Shown here: in pieces, positions 7,186 to 38,814 of the stretch
Layout: each line of letters begins with the position of its first letter
How positions within the stretch are numbered: the stretch's first letter is position 1
From: a virus
Taxonomy: Duplodnaviria; Caudoviricetes
Direction: 5' to 3' (one strand)
Length of the DNA stretch: 64,000 nt
IMG/VR virus record: IMGVR_UViG_3300047160_007019
Coordinates: 12,994 to 76,993 of that record
Notes under the pieces: model-generated
Database searches by the model: none
What the model saw: only the letters and a program-made list of their open reading frames with translations
Told to the model about the DNA's origin: nothing
Made by a program: the position numbers and the translations under genes

Positions 7186-7608
7186 TTATACCTCTCTCGT
7201 CCACTTGACATACGCGATCTTCCAAGGCTCCAGCAGCACCCGCTCGTAGCCGCGGCGCAAAACCGGGTCCAGAAACCCCACCCGCTTGCATTGCATGGTT
7301 TGGGCAATCTCCAGCACCTGTTCCTCGTACTGCTGAATGACACTGCGACTGGCGCTACTGTAGGCCCACCATACTAGTAGTTCGTAAGCCTGTTCCGCCG
7401 CCGGCAGGGATGGGAGGTAGATCGGCTCGCGTTTCACGATTACGAATCCGTCGTCGCACACAAACAGCTTGGACTGATTCAGCGCCAGGTCCAGGTAGAC
7501 ATCCTCCGGCCGCATCAGGCCGCGATGCGGTTCCATGGCCGACATCAGGCCTGGCAGGATGCGATCCCACCATGGTCGAAAATCCTCTTGCAGGACGAGC
7601 TGGCTCAT
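7186..7608 (-). CDS. Virion morphogenesis protein, possibly GNAT-like fold
   Basis: 140 aa with DGFVIV...LLVWWAYS pattern, in the usual slot before ejection genes. Confidence 0.45.
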   Translation of the reverse strand: MSQLVLQEDFRPWWDRILPGLMSAMEPHRGLMRPEDVYLDLALNQSKLFVCDDGFVIVKREPIYLPSLPAAEQAYELLVWWAYSSASRSVIQQYEEQVLEIAQTMQCKRVGFLDPVLRRGYERVLLEPWKIAYVKWTREV

Positions 7609-7889
7609 TGTGTCGTGTCCACCTGGCTCACCATTCCCTCCATCTCCTCCAGTGCTTTCTGGATAAACATACGATAGGCACGTTTGGCGCGCTCGTTCCA
7701 GTGGGCAGGAGGTTCTATCGGCACAACCGCGAAGGACCCACCGCTGACTTCCTGCATGATGCTGGAAGCTTCAACTGGCGGCAGGTCCCGCAATGATCGA
7801 TAGATCTGCATGATATCAACGGGGGTAGCCCGCCCCTCCTTGATCTTGTTGGCCAACTCCGCGAGCACGTCGATGGCTTCCCTTGGCAT
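7605..7889 (-). CDS. Hypothetical protein
   Basis: Translationally coupled ORF in the late operon. Confidence 0.5.
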   Translation of the reverse strand: MPREAIDVLAELANKIKEGRATPVDIMQIYRSLRDLPPVEASSIMQEVSGGSFAVVPIEPPAHWNERAKRAYRMFIQKALEEMEGMVSQVDTTQ

Positions 7890-20720: not shown

Positions 20721-22718
20721 TTAGATGCCGCTGTAGGTGACGTATCCCACCGCGATGTACGTCGGCTCCACCACGTCGAAGCCCCACAGGCACTGGCCGC
20801 GGAAAGCGGTCCCGAACTTGTTGGGCAGGCGGATGAACTCGGGCAGCATGTACTGCATTGCCCAGGTCAGGCCGTCGGGGTGGATGACCAGCACGTTCTC
20901 GCAGATCGGGTTGCCGGTCGAGCTGTCCACGTACTGCGGCAGGAAGGTGGACTCGAACAACTCCATGCCGTCGAACGGCCCGATGTAGCCCGTCCGGATG
21001 CCGCCCTCGCGGTCGCCGGTGACGTTGGCGGCCTGGAGGTTGGTCTGCATCAGCAGCTCTCGGTACGACGGCCCGATAACGACCTTCAGGCCCTCGGTGT
21101 AGACGTTGAGCTGCGTCAGCACGCGCTTCATCTTGAGCAGGAAGCTCTGCGCGTTGGACGTGGAGATGGATACCGGCGCACCGGCCGCCCCCAGGTTCGT
21201 GTCGGCGTTGATGCCCGCCGTCGCGCCCTGGTTGGTGGTGGCTACCTGCGCCGGGATGCCGGCGAGGATGGTCTTGTCCTGCTGGATCGAGATTTGCCGG
21301 ACAGCATCGTCCGACAGGCGCTCGAAGTTGTTGTTGATCGCCTGGTAGGCGTCCACGTCCTCGTAAACGAAGGCGTAGCCGTGGCGCTGGTTGATGTACA
21401 ACTGCGCCGCGGGCGTCGTCGGGGTCGTGTAGGCGCCCTGCGCCACAAGGTCGAAGTCCTTGTCGGCGAAGAAGACCTGCACGGTCGGCGTGCGCGGGAT
21501 GATGACGGATTGACCGTACTCGCGGATTTCCGTTTTCTTCATGTCCATGGTTCTTTATCCATGGCTCCTGCCGCTTTCGTCGGCAGACGAGACTATCTCT
21601 TTAGGCCGGTAGCGAATCACAGTGCCGAGACCCTGTTGAATCGCGTGTAGGCGCGCGTGTTGCTTTCTTGGCATCACTTCCAGATTTTCCGGAATGTTGT
21701 TGACCTTGTTTTCGTCGTCGTGATGGGCGACTTCCTCTTTGGTCAACGGACGGCCGAGCTTGCGCTCAGCGATGATGCGATGCTCGCGCACGTAACCCTT
21801 GGAGTCTGCCTCCGGGTGATCCGGCATCTGGATCATCCGGTAGCCGTTCCAGGTCGTGATGAAGCCGACATGGTAGGGGTCCTTGAATGGAATCCCCGCC
21901 GCGCGTGCGTGCTTCTTCACGGTGCCTGGATCAAGGCCGAGTTGCTTCGCAGCCTTCGGCGCAGACATTCCGCTCAGCGCCATGGCTTTGATTTTCTCGA
22001 CAATCTCCGGTGTTACTTTCCTATTCATGTTTTTGGCCTATCCCGTTTTCGTGGCGCTATACCGTCCGGTCTGGACTCCATGCGCTAGTCGTTGAACCTT
22101 CGCCGCATTCCTGCGGCGCTTGGCTGCTGATTGCCCAATCCGAACATTTTTCAGACCGTCGCGCTTGCCATTGCTGGCTACGCTGTGGTGTATTCGGCTC
22201 TGAGGGGTTTCCAGCAATTTACGGGATTTAACGAAGGCTAATTCAACCTTCCCACAGGTCGTGTTACCCATCGGGCTTTTTATCCCGATGTTCTGCGACT
22301 CTCGCCGCAGATCAGCATATTTCTTCATCCCCTTGTGATGGGGAGCCGCGCACTCGTGGACCTTCATAGTCCGGTCTGGACCGTATGGCCTATGCGTTGA
22401 ACCTTCCGGCCATTCCTGGTCGGCTTGGCTGCAGATTGCCCATTCCGGCGTGCACGCCGAATCCACGATCTTTTCGACCGTCGCATTTGTTCTTACGAAC
22501 TGTGCTGTGGTGACCATGGCTTTAGGGTTTTCCTGTCAGTTCACGCGGTTTTTCAACACCTGGGTTAGTTAAGTGTTGTTGCAGATTTCCGCTGCAATAA
22601 CTTTTCCGTAGTGCTTCACAGTGCACGTTGTCGACCACAAGGTCGGCAGCAGCGCACCGTTGGCAATCGTTGAAACGTCGGGGTACTGGGACCCCGGAAC
22701 AATTGGCAATGCGGCCAC
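20721..22718 (-). CDS. Major capsid protein, join(22572..22718, 22246..22254, 20721..21530), 321 aa after splicing
   Basis: GTG start with RBS GAGGA. The spliced junction reads ICNNT-WEG-EIREYGQSVIIPRTP, which aligns without gaps to the capsid motif I recall as ISNTDYEGEIKxxGDTVxIRxxP. Lies directly after the scaffold gene. Confidence 0.9.
21531..22245 (-). ncRNA. Group I intron 2 (715 nt, IA-like) carrying an HNH ORF in P8
   Basis: P1 GAAGGU/GCCUUC with U.G splice pair; P AAAUUGCUGGAAA; Q GGCAAUCAGCAGCCAAG; R GUUCAACGACUAG; S AAGAGAUAGUC; P3 AUCCCGU/ACGGGAU; P9 hairpins; terminal G at 21531. Confidence 0.92.
21555..22028 (-). CDS. Intron-encoded HNH homing endonuclease with N-terminal HTH
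   Basis: YVREHRIIAE..LGRPL..EEVAHHDDENKVNNIPENLEVM...HARLH. Confidence 0.88.
   Translation of the reverse strand: MNRKVTPEIVEKIKAMALSGMSAPKAAKQLGLDPGTVKKHARAAGIPFKDPYHVGFITTWNGYRMIQMPDHPEADSKGYVREHRIIAERKLGRPLTKEEVAHHDDENKVNNIPENLEVMPRKQHARLHAIQQGLGTVIRYRPKEIVSSADESGRSHG
22255..22571 (-). ncRNA. Group I intron 1 (317 nt, ORF-less)
   Basis: P1 CAACACU/GGUGUUG; P10 CCCA/UGGG; P GAACUGACAGGAAA; Q GGCAAUCUGCAGCCAAG; P7 GCAUA/UAUGC; P3 CCGCG/CGCGG; P8 UCCCC/GGGGA; P9 with GAGA tetraloop; terminal G at 22255. Confidence 0.88.
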
Positions 22719-35742: not shown

Positions 35743-35818
35743 TGGTACCCCTGGGGAGACTCGAACTCCCGACACCCAACTTAGAACGAAGGGACTCTAC
35801 CGACTGAGCTACAGGGGT
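35743..35818 (-). tRNA. tRNA-Arg(TCT), atypical (G32, two U.U mismatches in the anticodon stem)
   Basis: Cloverleaf; CCTTC-GTTCTAA-GTTGG; CCA encoded. Confidence 0.7.
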
Positions 35819-35830
35819 ATGGCGGACGGT

Positions 35831-35906
35831 TGGATCAAGCAGCAGGAATCGAACCTGCGTGGTCGACGTTCAAAGCGTCGCTGGGATGCCAGCAACCCAT
35901 GCTTGA
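35831..35906 (-). tRNA. tRNA-Gln(TTG)
   Basis: CGACG-CTTTGAA-CGTCG; CCA. Confidence 0.88.
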
Positions 35907-35907
35907 A

Positions 35908-35982
35908 TGGAACGCCAGGAGGGAATCGAACCCTCGGCCACCCCGCTAGGACCGGGGAGCTCTACCGCTGAGCTACTGGCGT
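35908..35982 (-). tRNA. tRNA-Arg(CCT), G32/G38
   Basis: CCCCG-GTCCTAG-CGGGG; CCA. Confidence 0.85.
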
Positions 35983-35985
35983 GTG

Positions 35986-36063
35986 TGGTGCGCAGTGTGG
36001 GAGTCGAACCCACAAGCCGCTCGTTTTGAGCGAGCGAGGTATGCCAGTTCCCTTCAACTGCGC
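35986..36063 (-). tRNA. tRNA-Leu(CAA), short variable arm
   Basis: GCTCG-CTCAAAA-CGAGC; CCA. Confidence 0.88.
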
Positions 36064-36064
36064 G

Positions 36065-36141
36065 TGGTGCCGGGCCGGGGACTCGAACCCCGAAAACGCA
36101 AGGTTTAAATCTGCGATGTCTGCCGATTGCATCAGCCCGGC
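36065..36141 (-). tRNA. tRNA-Leu(TAA), short variable arm
   Basis: GCAGA-TTTAAAC-CTTGC; CCA. Confidence 0.82.
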
Positions 36142-36145
36142 GTAG

Positions 36146-36220
36146 TGGTGGGGCGCATGGGATTTGAACCCACATCGACCGGATTAAAAGTCCGGGGTCC
36201 TGCCGTTGGACGAACGCCCC
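36146..36220 (-). tRNA. tRNA-Lys(TTT)
   Basis: CCGGA-CTTTTAA-TCCGG; CCA. Confidence 0.9.
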
Positions 36221-36229
36221 GCATGAAAG

Positions 36230-36305
36230 TGGTGGTGACGGCCGGGCTTGAACCGGCGCCGTCCTGGTTATGGGCCAGGCGCTCTCCCGACTAAGCTACG
36301 TCACC
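36230..36305 (-). tRNA. tRNA-Met or Ile2 (CAT), C33
   Basis: CCTGG-CCCATAA-CCAGG; CCA. Confidence 0.85.
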
Positions 36306-36310
36306 GTGAT

Positions 36311-36389
36311 TGGTCGGAGCGGCGGGATTCGAACCCGCGGCCCACTGTCCCCCAGACAGGTGCGCTAAACCAGGCTGCGCCACGCTCCG
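36311..36389 (-). tRNA. tRNA-Pro(GGG)
   Basis: Loop CTGGGGG; C1-G72; CCA. Confidence 0.88.
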
Positions 36390-36395
36390 ATGTGA

Positions 36396-36486
36396 TGGCG
36401 GAAGGCGGAGGACTCGAACCCCAAGCGCTGTTGCGCTCCATCGGCTTTCAAGGCCGCGGCCAGCTCCGGTGCTGGCATCACCTTCC
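36396..36486 (-). tRNA. tRNA-Ser(TGA)
   Basis: Loop CTTGAAA; long variable arm; G73. Confidence 0.9.
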
Positions 36487-36491
36487 GTTGT

Positions 36492-36566
36492 TGGTGCCGG
36501 CGAGAGGATTCGAACCTCCAACCCGCGCGTTACGAATGCGCTGCGCTACCGTTGCGCTACGTCGGC
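36492..36566 (-). tRNA. tRNA-Thr(CGT)
   Basis: Loop TTCGTAA; CCA. Confidence 0.9.
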
Positions 36567-36572
36567 GAATAT

Positions 36573-36646
36573 TGGTGCCCCAACACAGAATCGAACTGTG
36601 CTCTCCTGCTTACAAGGCAGGTGCATCCCCACAATGCTTCAAGGGC
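36573..36646 (-). tRNA. tRNA-Thr(TGT)
   Basis: CCTGC-CTTGTAA-GCAGG; CCA. Confidence 0.88.
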
Positions 36647-36647
36647 G

Positions 36648-36722
36648 TGGTGCCATCGGCAGGAATCGGACCTGCGACCTCCGCTTTACCAAAGCGGCGT
36701 TCTACCACTGAACTACGAAGGC
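36648..36722 (-). tRNA. tRNA-Thr(GGT)
   Basis: CCGCT-TTGGTAA-AGCGG; T loop TCCGATT. Confidence 0.88.
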
Positions 36723-36723
36723 A

Positions 36724-36799
36724 TGGCGAACCATGCGGGAGTCCCACCCGCTTCGGTCAGCTTGAAGGGCTGATGGCTCCAGTCTTTGCCATATGGTTC
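36724..36799 (-). tRNA. tRNA-Glu(TTC), C33, T loop TGGGACT
   Basis: TCAGC-CCTTCAA-GCTGA; G73; CCA. Confidence 0.8.
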
Positions 36800-36805
36800 T
36801 TCGAA

Positions 36806-36883
36806 TGGTGCGCCAGGGGAGATTCGAACTCCCATGGGACTGCCACCTCAAGGCAGCGCGTATACCGATTCCGCCACTGGCGC
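36806..36883 (-). tRNA. tRNA-Leu(GAG), short variable arm
   Basis: CTGCC-TTGAGGT-GGCAG; CCA. Confidence 0.88.
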
Positions 36884-36889
36884 ATGGGT

Positions 36890-36963
36890 TGGTGGGCACA
36901 GAGGGAGTTGAACCCTCATCTTTCCGGTTAAGAGCCGGAGGCTCTGCGTTGAGCTACATGCCC
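36890..36963 (-). tRNA. tRNA-Lys(CTT)
   Basis: TCCGG-CTCTTAA-CCGGA; CCA. Confidence 0.9.
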
Positions 36964-36971
36964 ATGGAAAA

Positions 36972-37047
36972 TGGAGGGATAGGTGGAAGTCGAATCCACT
37001 AGCCAACGGAGTCACAGTCCGCGCCCGCGCCGTTTGGGTTCTATCCC
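36972..37047 (-). tRNA. tRNA-His(GTG), no encoded G-1, U73
   Basis: GCGGA-CTGTGAC-TCCGT; acceptor GGGATAG/CTATCCC-T-CCA. Confidence 0.85.
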
Positions 37048-37052
37048 GCTGA

Positions 37053-37127
37053 TGGTGCACCAGGGTGGAGTCAAACCACCGGCCTATCGCTTATCGGGCG
37101 AGTGCTCTTTCGCTGAGCTACAGGTGC
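37053..37127 (-). tRNA. tRNA-Ile(GAT), C33
   Basis: Loop CCGATAA; CCA. Confidence 0.85.
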
Positions 37128-37135
37128 ATGAAATG

Positions 37136-37210
37136 TGGCGCCCTTGGCGGGTGCTGACCCCGCGGCCTCCCGCTCGACAGGCGGGCGTTCCACCGTTGAA
37201 CTACAAGGGC
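37136..37210 (-). tRNA. tRNA-Asp(GTC), T loop GTCAGCA
   Basis: CCCGC-CTGTCGA-GCGGG; G73. Confidence 0.82.
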
Positions 37211-37216
37211 AAAGCT

Positions 37217-37293
37217 TGGTGCGTCCGGGTGGGTACGATCCACCGACCTCCGCCCTGTCATGGCGGCGTTCTGCCAATTTGAACTACGGACGC
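37217..37293 (-). tRNA. tRNA-Val(GAC), A32/G38, T loop ATCGTAC
   Basis: CCGCC-ATGACAG-GGCGG; CCA. Confidence 0.82.
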
Positions 37294-37300
37294 GCATGTG

Positions 37301-37391
37301 TGGCGGATCGTAGAGGAGTCGAACCTCTGTGTCCCCTGTAGGAACCATCTGTTTAGCAAACAGCGCCGTTTGGCCTCTCCGGCAACGATCC
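37301..37391 (-). tRNA. tRNA-Ser(GCT)
   Basis: Loop TTGCTAA; long variable arm; G73. Confidence 0.88.
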
Positions 37392-37399
37392 AGGACTTG

Positions 37400-37486
37400 T
37401 GGCGGATGGAGCAGGACTCGAACCTGCAGGCCGCTTGCGCAGCACCTCGCTTCCAACGAGGATCCTTACCGTTCGGACATCCATCC
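37400..37486 (-). tRNA. tRNA-Ser(GGA)
   Basis: Loop TTGGAAG; long variable arm; G73. Confidence 0.9.
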
Positions 37487-37491
37487 AAAGC

Positions 37492-37570
37492 TGGTAGCCA
37501 ACCAGGGAGTCGAACCCTGCACCTCCGGTTTGTAGGACCGGCACTCTACTCGATCATGAGCTAGTCGGCT
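37492..37570 (-). tRNA. tRNA-Val(TAC), C33
   Basis: CCGGT-CCTACAA-ACCGG; CCA. Confidence 0.86.
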
Positions 37571-37580
37571 GTGGTGATGG

Positions 37581-37652
37581 TGGTGGAGCAACCGGGAGTT
37601 GAACCCGGCGAGCTGATCTTGCAAGGATCGGCTGCGCCCCGGCGCTTGCCCC
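37581..37652 (-). tRNA. tRNA-Ala(TGC), very short D loop
   Basis: G3.U70; loop CTTGCAA; 72 nt. Confidence 0.85.
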
Positions 37653-37658
37653 ATGTGC

Positions 37659-37735
37659 TGGTCCGTGTAGCGAGACTTGAACTCGCGGCCTCATCGTCCC
37701 GAACGATGCGCTCTACCAGGCTGAGCTACACACGG
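37659..37735 (-). tRNA. tRNA-Pro(CGG)
   Basis: CATCG-TTCGGGA-CGATG; C1-G72. Confidence 0.92.
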
Positions 37736-37743
37736 ATGAAAGA

Positions 37744-37818
37744 TGGTCGGAGTGGAGAGAATCGAACTCCCTTGAACGTGCGCCCAAGGCACGGGGCCAG
37801 CCAATGGCCCACACTCCG
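37744..37818 (-). tRNA. tRNA-Pro(TGG)
   Basis: CGTGC-CTTGGGC-GCACG; C1-G72. Confidence 0.9.
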
Positions 37819-37823
37819 GTTGA

Positions 37824-37916
37824 TGGTGCTTGCGCTAGGATTCGAACCTAGATCGTGCGCTAATCGGGCGCTTCAGGGTCTATAAGGCCCTCGCTCTACC
37901 GTTGAGCTACGCAAGC
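37824..37916 (-). tRNA. tRNA-Ile(TAT) with a long variable arm
   Basis: AGGGC-CTTATAG-ACCCT; variable arm GCGC-CCGATTA-GCGC; 93 nt. Confidence 0.82.
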
Positions 37917-37920
37917 ATGG

Positions 37921-37996
37921 TGGTGGTCCCGGCCCGATTCGAACGGGCGTCTCCGCGTCTTCAGCGCGGCGCTAAGGCCGTCTCAGCTACAGGACC
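37921..37996 (-). tRNA. tRNA-Phe(GAA)
   Basis: CCGCG-CTGAAGA-CGCGG; CCA. Confidence 0.9.
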
Positions 37997-37999
37997 ATG

Positions 38000-38075
38000 T
38001 GGCACAGGGGACAGGCTTCGAACCTGCAACCTGCGGTTTTGGAGACCGCCGCTCTACCAATTGAGCTACCCCCAT
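38000..38075 (-). tRNA. tRNA-Trp(CCA)
   Basis: GCGGT-CTCCAAA-ACCGC; G73. Confidence 0.9.
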
Positions 38076-38076
38076 A

Positions 38077-38151
38077 TGGAAGCCTGGGCCGGAATCAAAC
38101 CGGCGTCGTTGCGCTTTGCAGGCGCACGCATAATCACTCTGCCACCAGGCT
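38077..38151 (-). tRNA. tRNA-Cys(GCA)
   Basis: TGCGC-CTGCAAA-GCGCA; U73. Confidence 0.92.
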
Positions 38152-38154
38152 GTT

Positions 38155-38229
38155 TGGAGCGGACGGCGGGGATCGAACCCGCGACATCGAACTTGGAAGG
38201 ATCGCGTTCTGCCTCTGAACTACGCCCGC
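38155..38229 (-). tRNA. tRNA-Gly(TCC)
   Basis: Loop CTTCCAA; U73. Confidence 0.9.
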
Positions 38230-38236
38230 ATGATGT

Positions 38237-38312
38237 TGGCTTCGACGGCACGAGTCGAACGTGCGTGGCCTTGGTTCAGAGCCAAGATGGGATGCCGGCA
38301 ACCCGCGTCGAA
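38237..38312 (-). tRNA. tRNA-Gln(CTG)
   Basis: CTTGG-CTCTGAA-CCAAG; G73. Confidence 0.9.
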
Positions 38313-38320
38313 ACAGGATC

Positions 38321-38395
38321 TGGAACCCCCGGCGCGATTTGAACGCGCGACATCCGCCTTCGGAGAGCGGTGCTCTACCACTGAGCTACGAGGGT
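38321..38395 (-). tRNA. tRNA-Arg(CCG)
   Basis: CCGCT-CTCCGAA-GGCGG; CCA. Confidence 0.9.
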
Positions 38396-38400
38396 GAATC

Positions 38401-38476
38401 TGGAACCCCTGGCAGGACTCGAACCTGCGGCCTCCGACTTCGTAGGACGGCATTCTTCCAACTGAACTACAGGGGT
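38401..38476 (-). tRNA. tRNA-Arg(ACG)
   Basis: Loop CTACGAA; CCA. Confidence 0.9.
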
Positions 38477-38482
38477 ACAGGG

Positions 38483-38562
38483 TGGTGCGTAGCCCCGGAC
38501 TCGAACCGGGAAACCGCTGGGTCTGAGCCAGCGAGGTATACCAAGATTCCCTTCAGCTACGC
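38483..38562 (-). tRNA. tRNA-Leu(CAG), short variable arm
   Basis: GCTGG-CTCAGAC-CCAGC; CCA. Confidence 0.88.
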
Positions 38563-38566
38563 GAAA

Positions 38567-38655
38567 TGGTGGGTGCTGGCGGAGTCGAACCGATGCCCAT
38601 GGGGAGCTGGTTTACAGCCAGCCGTCTTTCCAAAAGACCTTACGTCGCAACACCC
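38567..38655 (-). tRNA. tRNA-Tyr(GTA), atypical D region and T stem
   Basis: GCTGG-CTGTAAA-CCAGC; extra bases before a GTCTTT/AAAGAC D stem. Confidence 0.75.
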
Positions 38656-38656
38656 T

Positions 38657-38731
38657 TGGCTCCAGTGGAGGGATTCGAACCCCCGGTGAGGTCATTAACA
38701 GTGACCGGCCTTTCCGCTTGGCTACACTGGA
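38657..38731 (-). tRNA. tRNA-Asn(GTT)
   Basis: GGTCA-CTGTTAA-TGACC; G73. Confidence 0.92.
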
Positions 38732-38739
38732 ATAGAAAT

Positions 38740-38814
38740 TGGAGCGGTGGACGAGAATCGAACTCGTATGATCCTGCTTGGCAAGCAGGTGCCCAACCAC
38801 TGGACCACCACCGC
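38740..38814 (-). tRNA. tRNA-Gly(GCC), first tRNA of the array
   Basis: CCTGC-TTGCCAA-GCAGG; U73. Confidence 0.92.

Follow-up and report, generated by a model that had tools for sequence, protein, structure and literature searches.

A nine-nucleotide coding micro-exon between two predicted group I introns in the capsid gene of a soil phage

Closely spaced group I introns have been described in single phage genes. As summarised in PMC11878797, orf142 of Staphylococcus phage Twort is a single gene interrupted by three group I introns and undergoes exon skipping (Landthaler and Shub, 1999), and the Bastillevirinae cases include the rNDPL gene of phiNIT1, with a small exon between two introns, and genes of phage SIOphi that show exon skipping. 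Here, we describe a related arrangement in a predicted major capsid gene on the minus strand of a 64,000-nucleotide (nt) stretch of DNA, called the window throughout, which is part of the 77-kb IMG/VR virus record IMGVR_UViG_3300047160_007019 (a metagenome assembly from soil metagenomes, ~94% complete). Our analysis indicates that this gene is split by two group I introns nine bases apart and that these nine bases are a real coding exon. The locus resembles Twort orf142 and the Bastillevirinae genes in that related group I introns lie close together in one phage gene, around a small internal exon whose skipping is chemically possible. It differs from them in that the exon has 9 nt, is fully base-paired by two guides and belongs to a major capsid gene, in that the P7 helices of the two introns are not complementary and their P3 strands are different, and in being known from DNA alone.

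Very small exons have also been reported outside phages. In mitochondrial genes, mini-exons shorter than ~4 codons are a regular occurrence (PMC10352661), and placozoan cox1 contains a 1-nt exon between group I introns (PMC5436844). There, as at our locus, a second group I intron beside an existing one makes the tiny exon, and conserved residues are restored by double splicing; the genes concerned, however, are those of organelles and not of phages, and with exons of 1–3 nt the downstream P1 helix reaches into the upstream exon, so that an order of splicing is forced, whereas 9 nt would force none. The major capsid gene L425 of Mimivirus is composed of exons of 60, 24 and 1701 nt and two introns (PMC2688009). 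Like the gene described here, it is a viral major capsid gene with an N-terminal region split around a micro-exon that gene callers miss, but it belongs to a giant eukaryotic virus, its small exon has 24 nt, one of its introns is unassignable to group I, and neither a partition of homing endonucleases nor a hot-spot is described there.

HNH intron endonucleases of the I-HmuI and I-BasI type are found in SPO1-like phages. An HNH intron endonuclease has also been reported for phage PhiPA3 (PMC11620839), and systems of this type share with ours an essential phage gene that hosts a group I intron with an HNH_3 open reading frame (ORF) in a peripheral loop; the difference is that here a second, ORF-less intron lies 9 base pairs (bp) away, which the HNH enzyme may carry along as a passenger. 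Both exon skipping in phages and mini-exons flanked by group I introns have been published before, and the locus is not a new mechanism. What it adds is the abutting use of a 9-nt exon by a P10 and a P1 helix, a multi-site hot-spot for LAGLIDADG and HNH elements, and a second, independent case of twin introns. It is, in addition, a compact natural system (~1.3 kb, with a 9-nt exon in which every base is paired by one guide or the other) for probing interference between adjacent ribozymes, and could show what keeps exon skipping low, while the hot-spot, shared by LAGLIDADG elements upstream and HNH elements downstream, should be useful for studying competition and hitch-hiking among phage homing elements.

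A nine-base exon in a conserved capsid motif

All parts of the gene are read from the minus strand of the window. Exon 1 (22572–22718), as given in the ORF list, starts with GTG, comprises 49 codons up to ...ICNNT and is followed immediately by UAA; its N terminus agrees with that of the intron-less homolog P0001 (MAALPI...ICNNT). Intron 1 (22255–22571) was recognised by the Rfam group I model RF00028, with its ends set by intron-less alleles; it has 317 nt, no ORF and a terminal G at 22255. Then comes the micro-exon (22246–22254), the reverse complement of which is UGGGAAGGU, coding for Trp-Glu-Gly (WEG) and directly followed by UGA. Intron 2 (21531–22245; 715 nt, terminal G at 21531) is likewise matched by RF00028, is homologous to introns inserted at the same place in relatives (site 2, after the Gly codon) and contains an ORF of 157 codons for an HNH homing endonuclease (21555–22028). 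Exon 3 (20721–21530), recognised through Pfam, PHROG and P0001, begins with GAAAUC (EI...) and comprises 269 codons and a stop.

Once joined, the three exons read ...EICNNT-WEG-EIREYGQ. The closest homolog (P0001, on contig L003), which is uninterrupted and 90% identical, reads ...EICNNT-WNG-EIENYGQ at the same place, and further full-length homologs read NND-WEG-EIK. Among 80 distant intron-less relatives from viral contigs (~30% identical), all but two keep [W/Y/F]-[E/Q]-G followed by E-I; in 51 distinct contexts the motif is YEG (36), WEG (11), WQG (three) or FEG (one), and its Gly is almost invariant in the family. Taken together, these comparisons indicate that the nine bases encode the centre of the best-conserved motif of this capsid family, N-x-[T/D]-[W/Y]-E-G-E-I. 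Gene callers overlook the structure of the gene, and correct annotation therefore depends on recognising both introns.

The assignment of exon 3 to a capsid protein is based on matches to Pfam Phage_capsid_4 (E = 5.9e-8, 33.8 bits, cut-off 27) and to phrog_267, major head protein (E = 1.9e-19), and on 30% identity, across 99% of exon 3, to a Rhizobium phage 'major capsid protein'. The nearest cultured relatives (30% identity) bear the annotation major capsid protein, and SU10-type portal and adaptor genes adjoin the capsid gene in relatives. The ORF within intron 2 matches Pfam HNH_3 (E = 6.4e-9, 35.7 bits, cut-off 24.8) and HNH endonuclease families of PHROG (best E = 6e-21). Scans of viral and metagenome collections with exon 3 yielded close relatives on two distinct contigs only; in the cultured-phage collection, relatives did not exceed 30% protein identity, and DNA matches were limited to generic intron cores. 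An AlphaFold2 model of the intron-less homolog, made from a 10-sequence alignment, was of poor quality (mean predicted local distance difference test score of 44.5, with the N-terminal 165 residues below 50) and is uninformative on the position of WEG.

In both introns the 5' splice site shows a U.G pair and the last base is a guanosine (omega G), and their exact removal restores a continuous conserved reading frame, as in the intron-less contigs L003 and L090. They are the only matches to RF00028 in the whole 77-kb record, and core tracts of the intron region are 70–80% identical to introns of many cultured phages. Alternatively, the split gene could be an artefact of assembly or a pseudogene in decay, with the micro-exon a coincidence, given that the record is a metagenome assembly and that both introns score under the Rfam gathering cut-off. 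We find this hardly credible: the splice-site U.G pairs and terminal G are present in both introns, the three exons are all intact, with 90% identity to the intron-less homolog, and the micro-exon is spanned together with both introns, with zero differences, by DNA contigs of other soil runs (X3 record 17, at 21795–22470; X2 record 13). No second capsid gene was seen either, though a dedicated search was not run. In the short contigs of four soil runs, among which the source sample itself may be represented, only the twin-intron form crossed the micro-exon, and an intron-less or single-intron joint for the source phage was not found. Among the sequencing runs listed as containing this DNA, none was an RNA run.

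Pairing of the two guides with the exon

Intron 1 begins with UAACUAA-CCCA-GGUGUUG, and its guide occupies 22554–22564. The P1 strand GGUGUUG (22560–22554) pairs with CAACACU, the 3'-terminal 7 nt of exon 1, giving 7 bp with U.G at the splice site, while the P10 strand CCCA (22564–22561), directly 5' of the P1 guide, pairs with UGGG, nt 1–4 of the micro-exon, in four of four Watson–Crick pairs. Intron 2 begins with UGAAUUA-GCCUUC, in which GCCUUC (22233–22238) pairs with GAAGGU, nt 4–9 of the micro-exon, to form a 6-bp P1 with a 7-nt loop and U.G at the splice site. The P10 of intron 1 and the P1 of intron 2 thus jointly span all nine bases, with only G4 common to both, a complete coverage that follows from the 9-nt spacing combined with helices of normal length (P10 3–6 bp, P1 6–8 bp). 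An earlier note on this DNA had described exactly this use of the whole micro-exon by both guides, with the overlap at G4, and both the pairing and the covariation reported below bear it out.

Pairing in related introns, the P1 loops of which vary from 7 to 27 nt, was scored by table with a cross-control, and the chance of a 4-pair run in a fixed register is ~0.4% (Watson–Crick only) to 2% (with G.U). All seven distinct introns of the upstream lineage form a P10 of 3–6 contiguous pairs with their own exon, the guide changing along with the exon. When placed on 3' exons of unlike sequence, upstream-lineage guides gave at most 3 pairs, mostly 0–2; higher counts in the cross-control arose only between near-identical exon starts (the L005 guide on the UAUGAAGG exons of L138 and L139, 5 pairs; site-1 exons generally). 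At site 1, before the W/Y codon, the P10 pairings are UGGGAG:CUCCCA in L004, UACGA:UCGUG in L005, UAUG:CAUA in L138 and UAU:AUA in L139. One codon downstream of site 1, the intron of L127 has a 6-bp P10 (GAAGGC:GCCUUU), and three codons upstream, intron A of L126 (IMGVR_UViG_3300050026_000598, 7384–7660), a distant family member that also has twin introns, has AACCGU:ACGGUU.

The P1 helix covaries across 14 related introns, and at site 2 the relatives show GGAGGGU:GCCCUCC, CGAAGGU:GCCUUCG, CCAGGGU:GCCCUGG, GAGGGU:GCCCUC and UGAGGGU:GCUCUCA. A P10 for intron 2 was looked for in the same way, with 0 contiguous pairs to exon 3 in the window and 0–2 across seven introns of the downstream lineage. 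The comparative evidence indicates that the P10 of intron 1 and the P1 of intron 2 are genuine recognition elements.

The capsid transcript contains five copies of GAAGGU, the target of the intron 2 guide (minus strand; 22406–22401, 22365–22360, 22251–22246, 22101–22096 and 21087–21082), that is, twice in intron 1 and once each in the micro-exon, the core of intron 2 and exon 3. The extra copies are potential cryptic targets, and the true site would be favoured because it is part of a local hairpin. Exon 1 also contains a 6-bp hairpin (UUGCAG...CUGCAA; 22575–22598, minus strand) directly 5' of the intron 1 P1 strand, and the Rfam model takes this hairpin for P1.

Splicing order and exon skipping

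We consider it likely that the locus represents a real 9-nt coding micro-exon generated by two different group I introns at neighbouring homing sites in a conserved capsid motif. Each ribozyme would recognise its junctions in the normal way of its own lineage, intron 1 by a 7-bp P1 on exon 1 and a 4-bp P10 on UGGG, and intron 2 by a P1 of 6 bp that folds locally as a hairpin on GAAGGU, with no P10, and the normal product would be exon 1–WEG–exon 3. Nine nt barely fit both elements (4 + 6 − 1), so that the precursor would have everything that each intron needs, and since the P1 of intron 2 and the P10 of intron 1 each lie wholly within the exon, either intron could finish without removal of the other, and either order would be possible. 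In group I architecture generally, one 9-nt segment cannot dock in two catalytic clefts at once. With the segment in one catalytic core only and G4 in one helix only, the two reactions would go one after another, and such mutually exclusive docking would amount to kinetic interference between the introns.

The sequence appears to force no order on the two reactions. Intron 1 is complete ~700 nt earlier in transcription, and the core of intron 2 is split by its ORF, which runs through the 3' strand of P7 and through P9; for these reasons intron 1 probably splices first, as a tendency. A literature search on splicing order with group I introns gave no match.

A stricter alternative is obligate ordered splicing, in which competition between P10 and P1 would force one intron (for example, intron 2) out first and the coupled pair would serve to time capsid synthesis; the earlier note, too, had proposed that the helices compete and may impose an order. 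The computed energy of the P10 is −4.1 kcal/mol with 4 bp and −0.8 kcal/mol with the 3 bp left when G4 is lost, so that the shared base is worth ~3.3 kcal/mol to this helix. The P1 hairpin of intron 2 (−6.9 kcal/mol) is local and would be ready within ~22 nt of transcription, likely before the second step of intron 1. The window P10 has only 4 bp, while the single-intron relatives L004 and L005 have 6 bp and 5 bp, respectively, and this could also reflect accommodation to the neighbour. However, the site-2 lineage has no P10 and the single-intron L138 and L139 have one of only 3–4 bp, so that a short P10 is not special to the twin context. Furthermore, the recognition elements fit within the exon, so neither intron requires removal of the other, the overlap is one terminal pair that can fray, and in L126, the other twin case, the two helices do not touch (nt 1–6 and nt 12–18 of an 18-nt exon). 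We therefore regard an obligate order as unlikely: the exclusive use of G4 by one helix at a time stands, while the fit of both elements in the exon means that no order is forced.

Exon skipping raises a different possibility, namely that a functional capsid variant without Trp-Glu-Gly is produced. As the earlier note had stated, removal of the 9 nt is in frame; intron 2, moreover, is without a P10, which leaves its 3' splice site unconstrained by its own guide. The same note had argued that the intron 1 guide is unfit for the start of exon 3, which would disfavour skipping, and this was upheld, as CCCA forms 0 contiguous pairs with GAAA and, in the energy computation, the guide gains nothing past P1 at a skipped exon 1–exon 3 junction. 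Read from the sequence, P7 is GCAUA/UAUGC in intron 1 and GACUA/UAGUC in intron 2, and these non-complementary helices disfavour a hybrid core joining exon 1 to exon 3. At the protein level, the conservation of [W/Y/F]-[E/Q]-G in 78 of the 80 distant relatives, with its nearly invariant Gly, speaks against a functional variant, and a protein without these residues is encoded by no relative. Skipping would thus be disfavoured because the P10 misfits exon 3, the P7 helices are not complementary and the product lacks the motif, and we infer that it yields at most a minor, non-functional by-product. A functional variant is very improbable, and the WEG-less capsid isoform that the earlier note had envisaged, having lost the core of the best-conserved motif, would more likely be a defective by-product.

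Several points weigh on the other side of the interpretation that we favour, a real micro-exon between two independently recognised introns. The RF00028 scores, 44.1 bits for intron 2 (E = 1.4e-9) and 41.0 bits for intron 1 (E = 1.2e-8), are below the curated 50-bit cut-off; the L126 introns at the same hot-spot are above it (64.7 and 68.9 bits). Docking of the exon in one ribozyme at a time is deduced from what is generally known of group I architecture and not from computation, the co-inheritance of both introns discussed below is argued from their 9-bp spacing, and the splicing of both introns, its order and its products are deduced from the genomic sequence. Group I introns of phages are known to skip exons, and skipping can dominate in other multi-intron phage genes: as summarised in PMC11878797, it is seen in Twort orf142, and the terminase gene of SIOphi, when spliced in vitro, yields as its dominant variant one that leaves out an internal exon. 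Some skipping may therefore occur here as well.

An insertion hot-spot and the origin of the introns

In the family as a whole, the region of the capsid motif E-I-x-N-x-D-[W/Y]-E-G-E-I contains at least four intron insertion points in 27 nt (the region of 22246–22272 in the window). Site 1 alone is filled in L004, L005 (= L130/134/144), L138 and L139, and site 2 alone in L008 (= L089/106), L099 (= L110), L103, L107 and L112. An intron of L092 ends at site 2, the contig stopping before the upstream part, and L003 and L090 are intron-less at both sites. The upstream-site introns are compact ribozymes, with LAGLIDADG_2 in five of the five that have an ORF, while among the site-2 introns HNH_3 is present in five, that of the window included; L008 has no ORF, and the ORF of L103 has no Pfam match. 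In both twin cases, the window and L126, the upstream intron is without an endonuclease gene, and L126 consists of an ORF-less upstream intron, an 18-nt micro-exon (AACCGUGAUUAUGAGGGU, NRDYEG) and an HNH intron (intron B), which occupies site 2 and is of the site-2 lineage.

In every intron-bearing allele the base before each insertion site is U, as needed for the U.G pair. In 51 distinct intron-less relatives (L009–L088; the survey of this wobble base also took in L003:2340–2400 and L090:3470–3510), the base is C in 26, T in 21, G in three and A in one at site 1, and C in 29, T in 19 and G in three at site 2, so that ~40% of empty sites already have the U required for splicing.

Intron 2 belongs to the site-2 lineage, being homologous to the introns of L107, L112, L099 and L008. 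Intron 1 has a P1/P10 module like that of L004, with the same 11-nt loop and the same CCCA, while its core (positions 21–228) is closest to site-2 introns (68% identity to L099 and L008, 65% to intron 2) and its long P5 extension (about 95 nt) is shared with site-2 introns, where it has 80–95 nt, and absent from the LAGLIDADG lineage. Intron 1 looks chimeric between lineages, and the comparison indicates that it is not a recent copy of intron 2; its origin may lie in a site-2-type ribozyme that was re-targeted or in recombination between lineages. The ORF-less intron 1 was probably inherited jointly with the HNH-carrying intron 2. A further, tentative proposal takes the two introns as one coupled unit around the smallest exon able to accommodate the P10 of one ribozyme and the P1 of the next, in which the shared G and mutually exclusive docking would have the ribozymes take turns in a preferred order and the ORF-less upstream intron would be kept by co-conversion with the HNH intron as a two-intron homing cassette, one that would have arisen at least twice at the hot-spot (window, L126); we consider this possible but doubtful.

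With regard to L126, its intron A must end in ...ACUA, with a terminal A in place of the usual G, for the micro-exon to stay in frame. The 6-bp P10 of this intron, given above, supports the ...ACUA junction, and its P7 is canonical-looking (GACUA/UAGUC). The terminal A could be natural, making this an omega-A intron, or could stem from a defective allele or from an error in the assembly, and a second contig with a variant of this terminus was not found.

Elsewhere in the window, a dense tRNA array of at least 24 genes lies at 35746–38814 (minus strand). Within it, 36400–36486 matches the tRNA-Sec model with 48.7 bits against a cut-off of 47, but the tRNA concerned may simply have a long variable arm.

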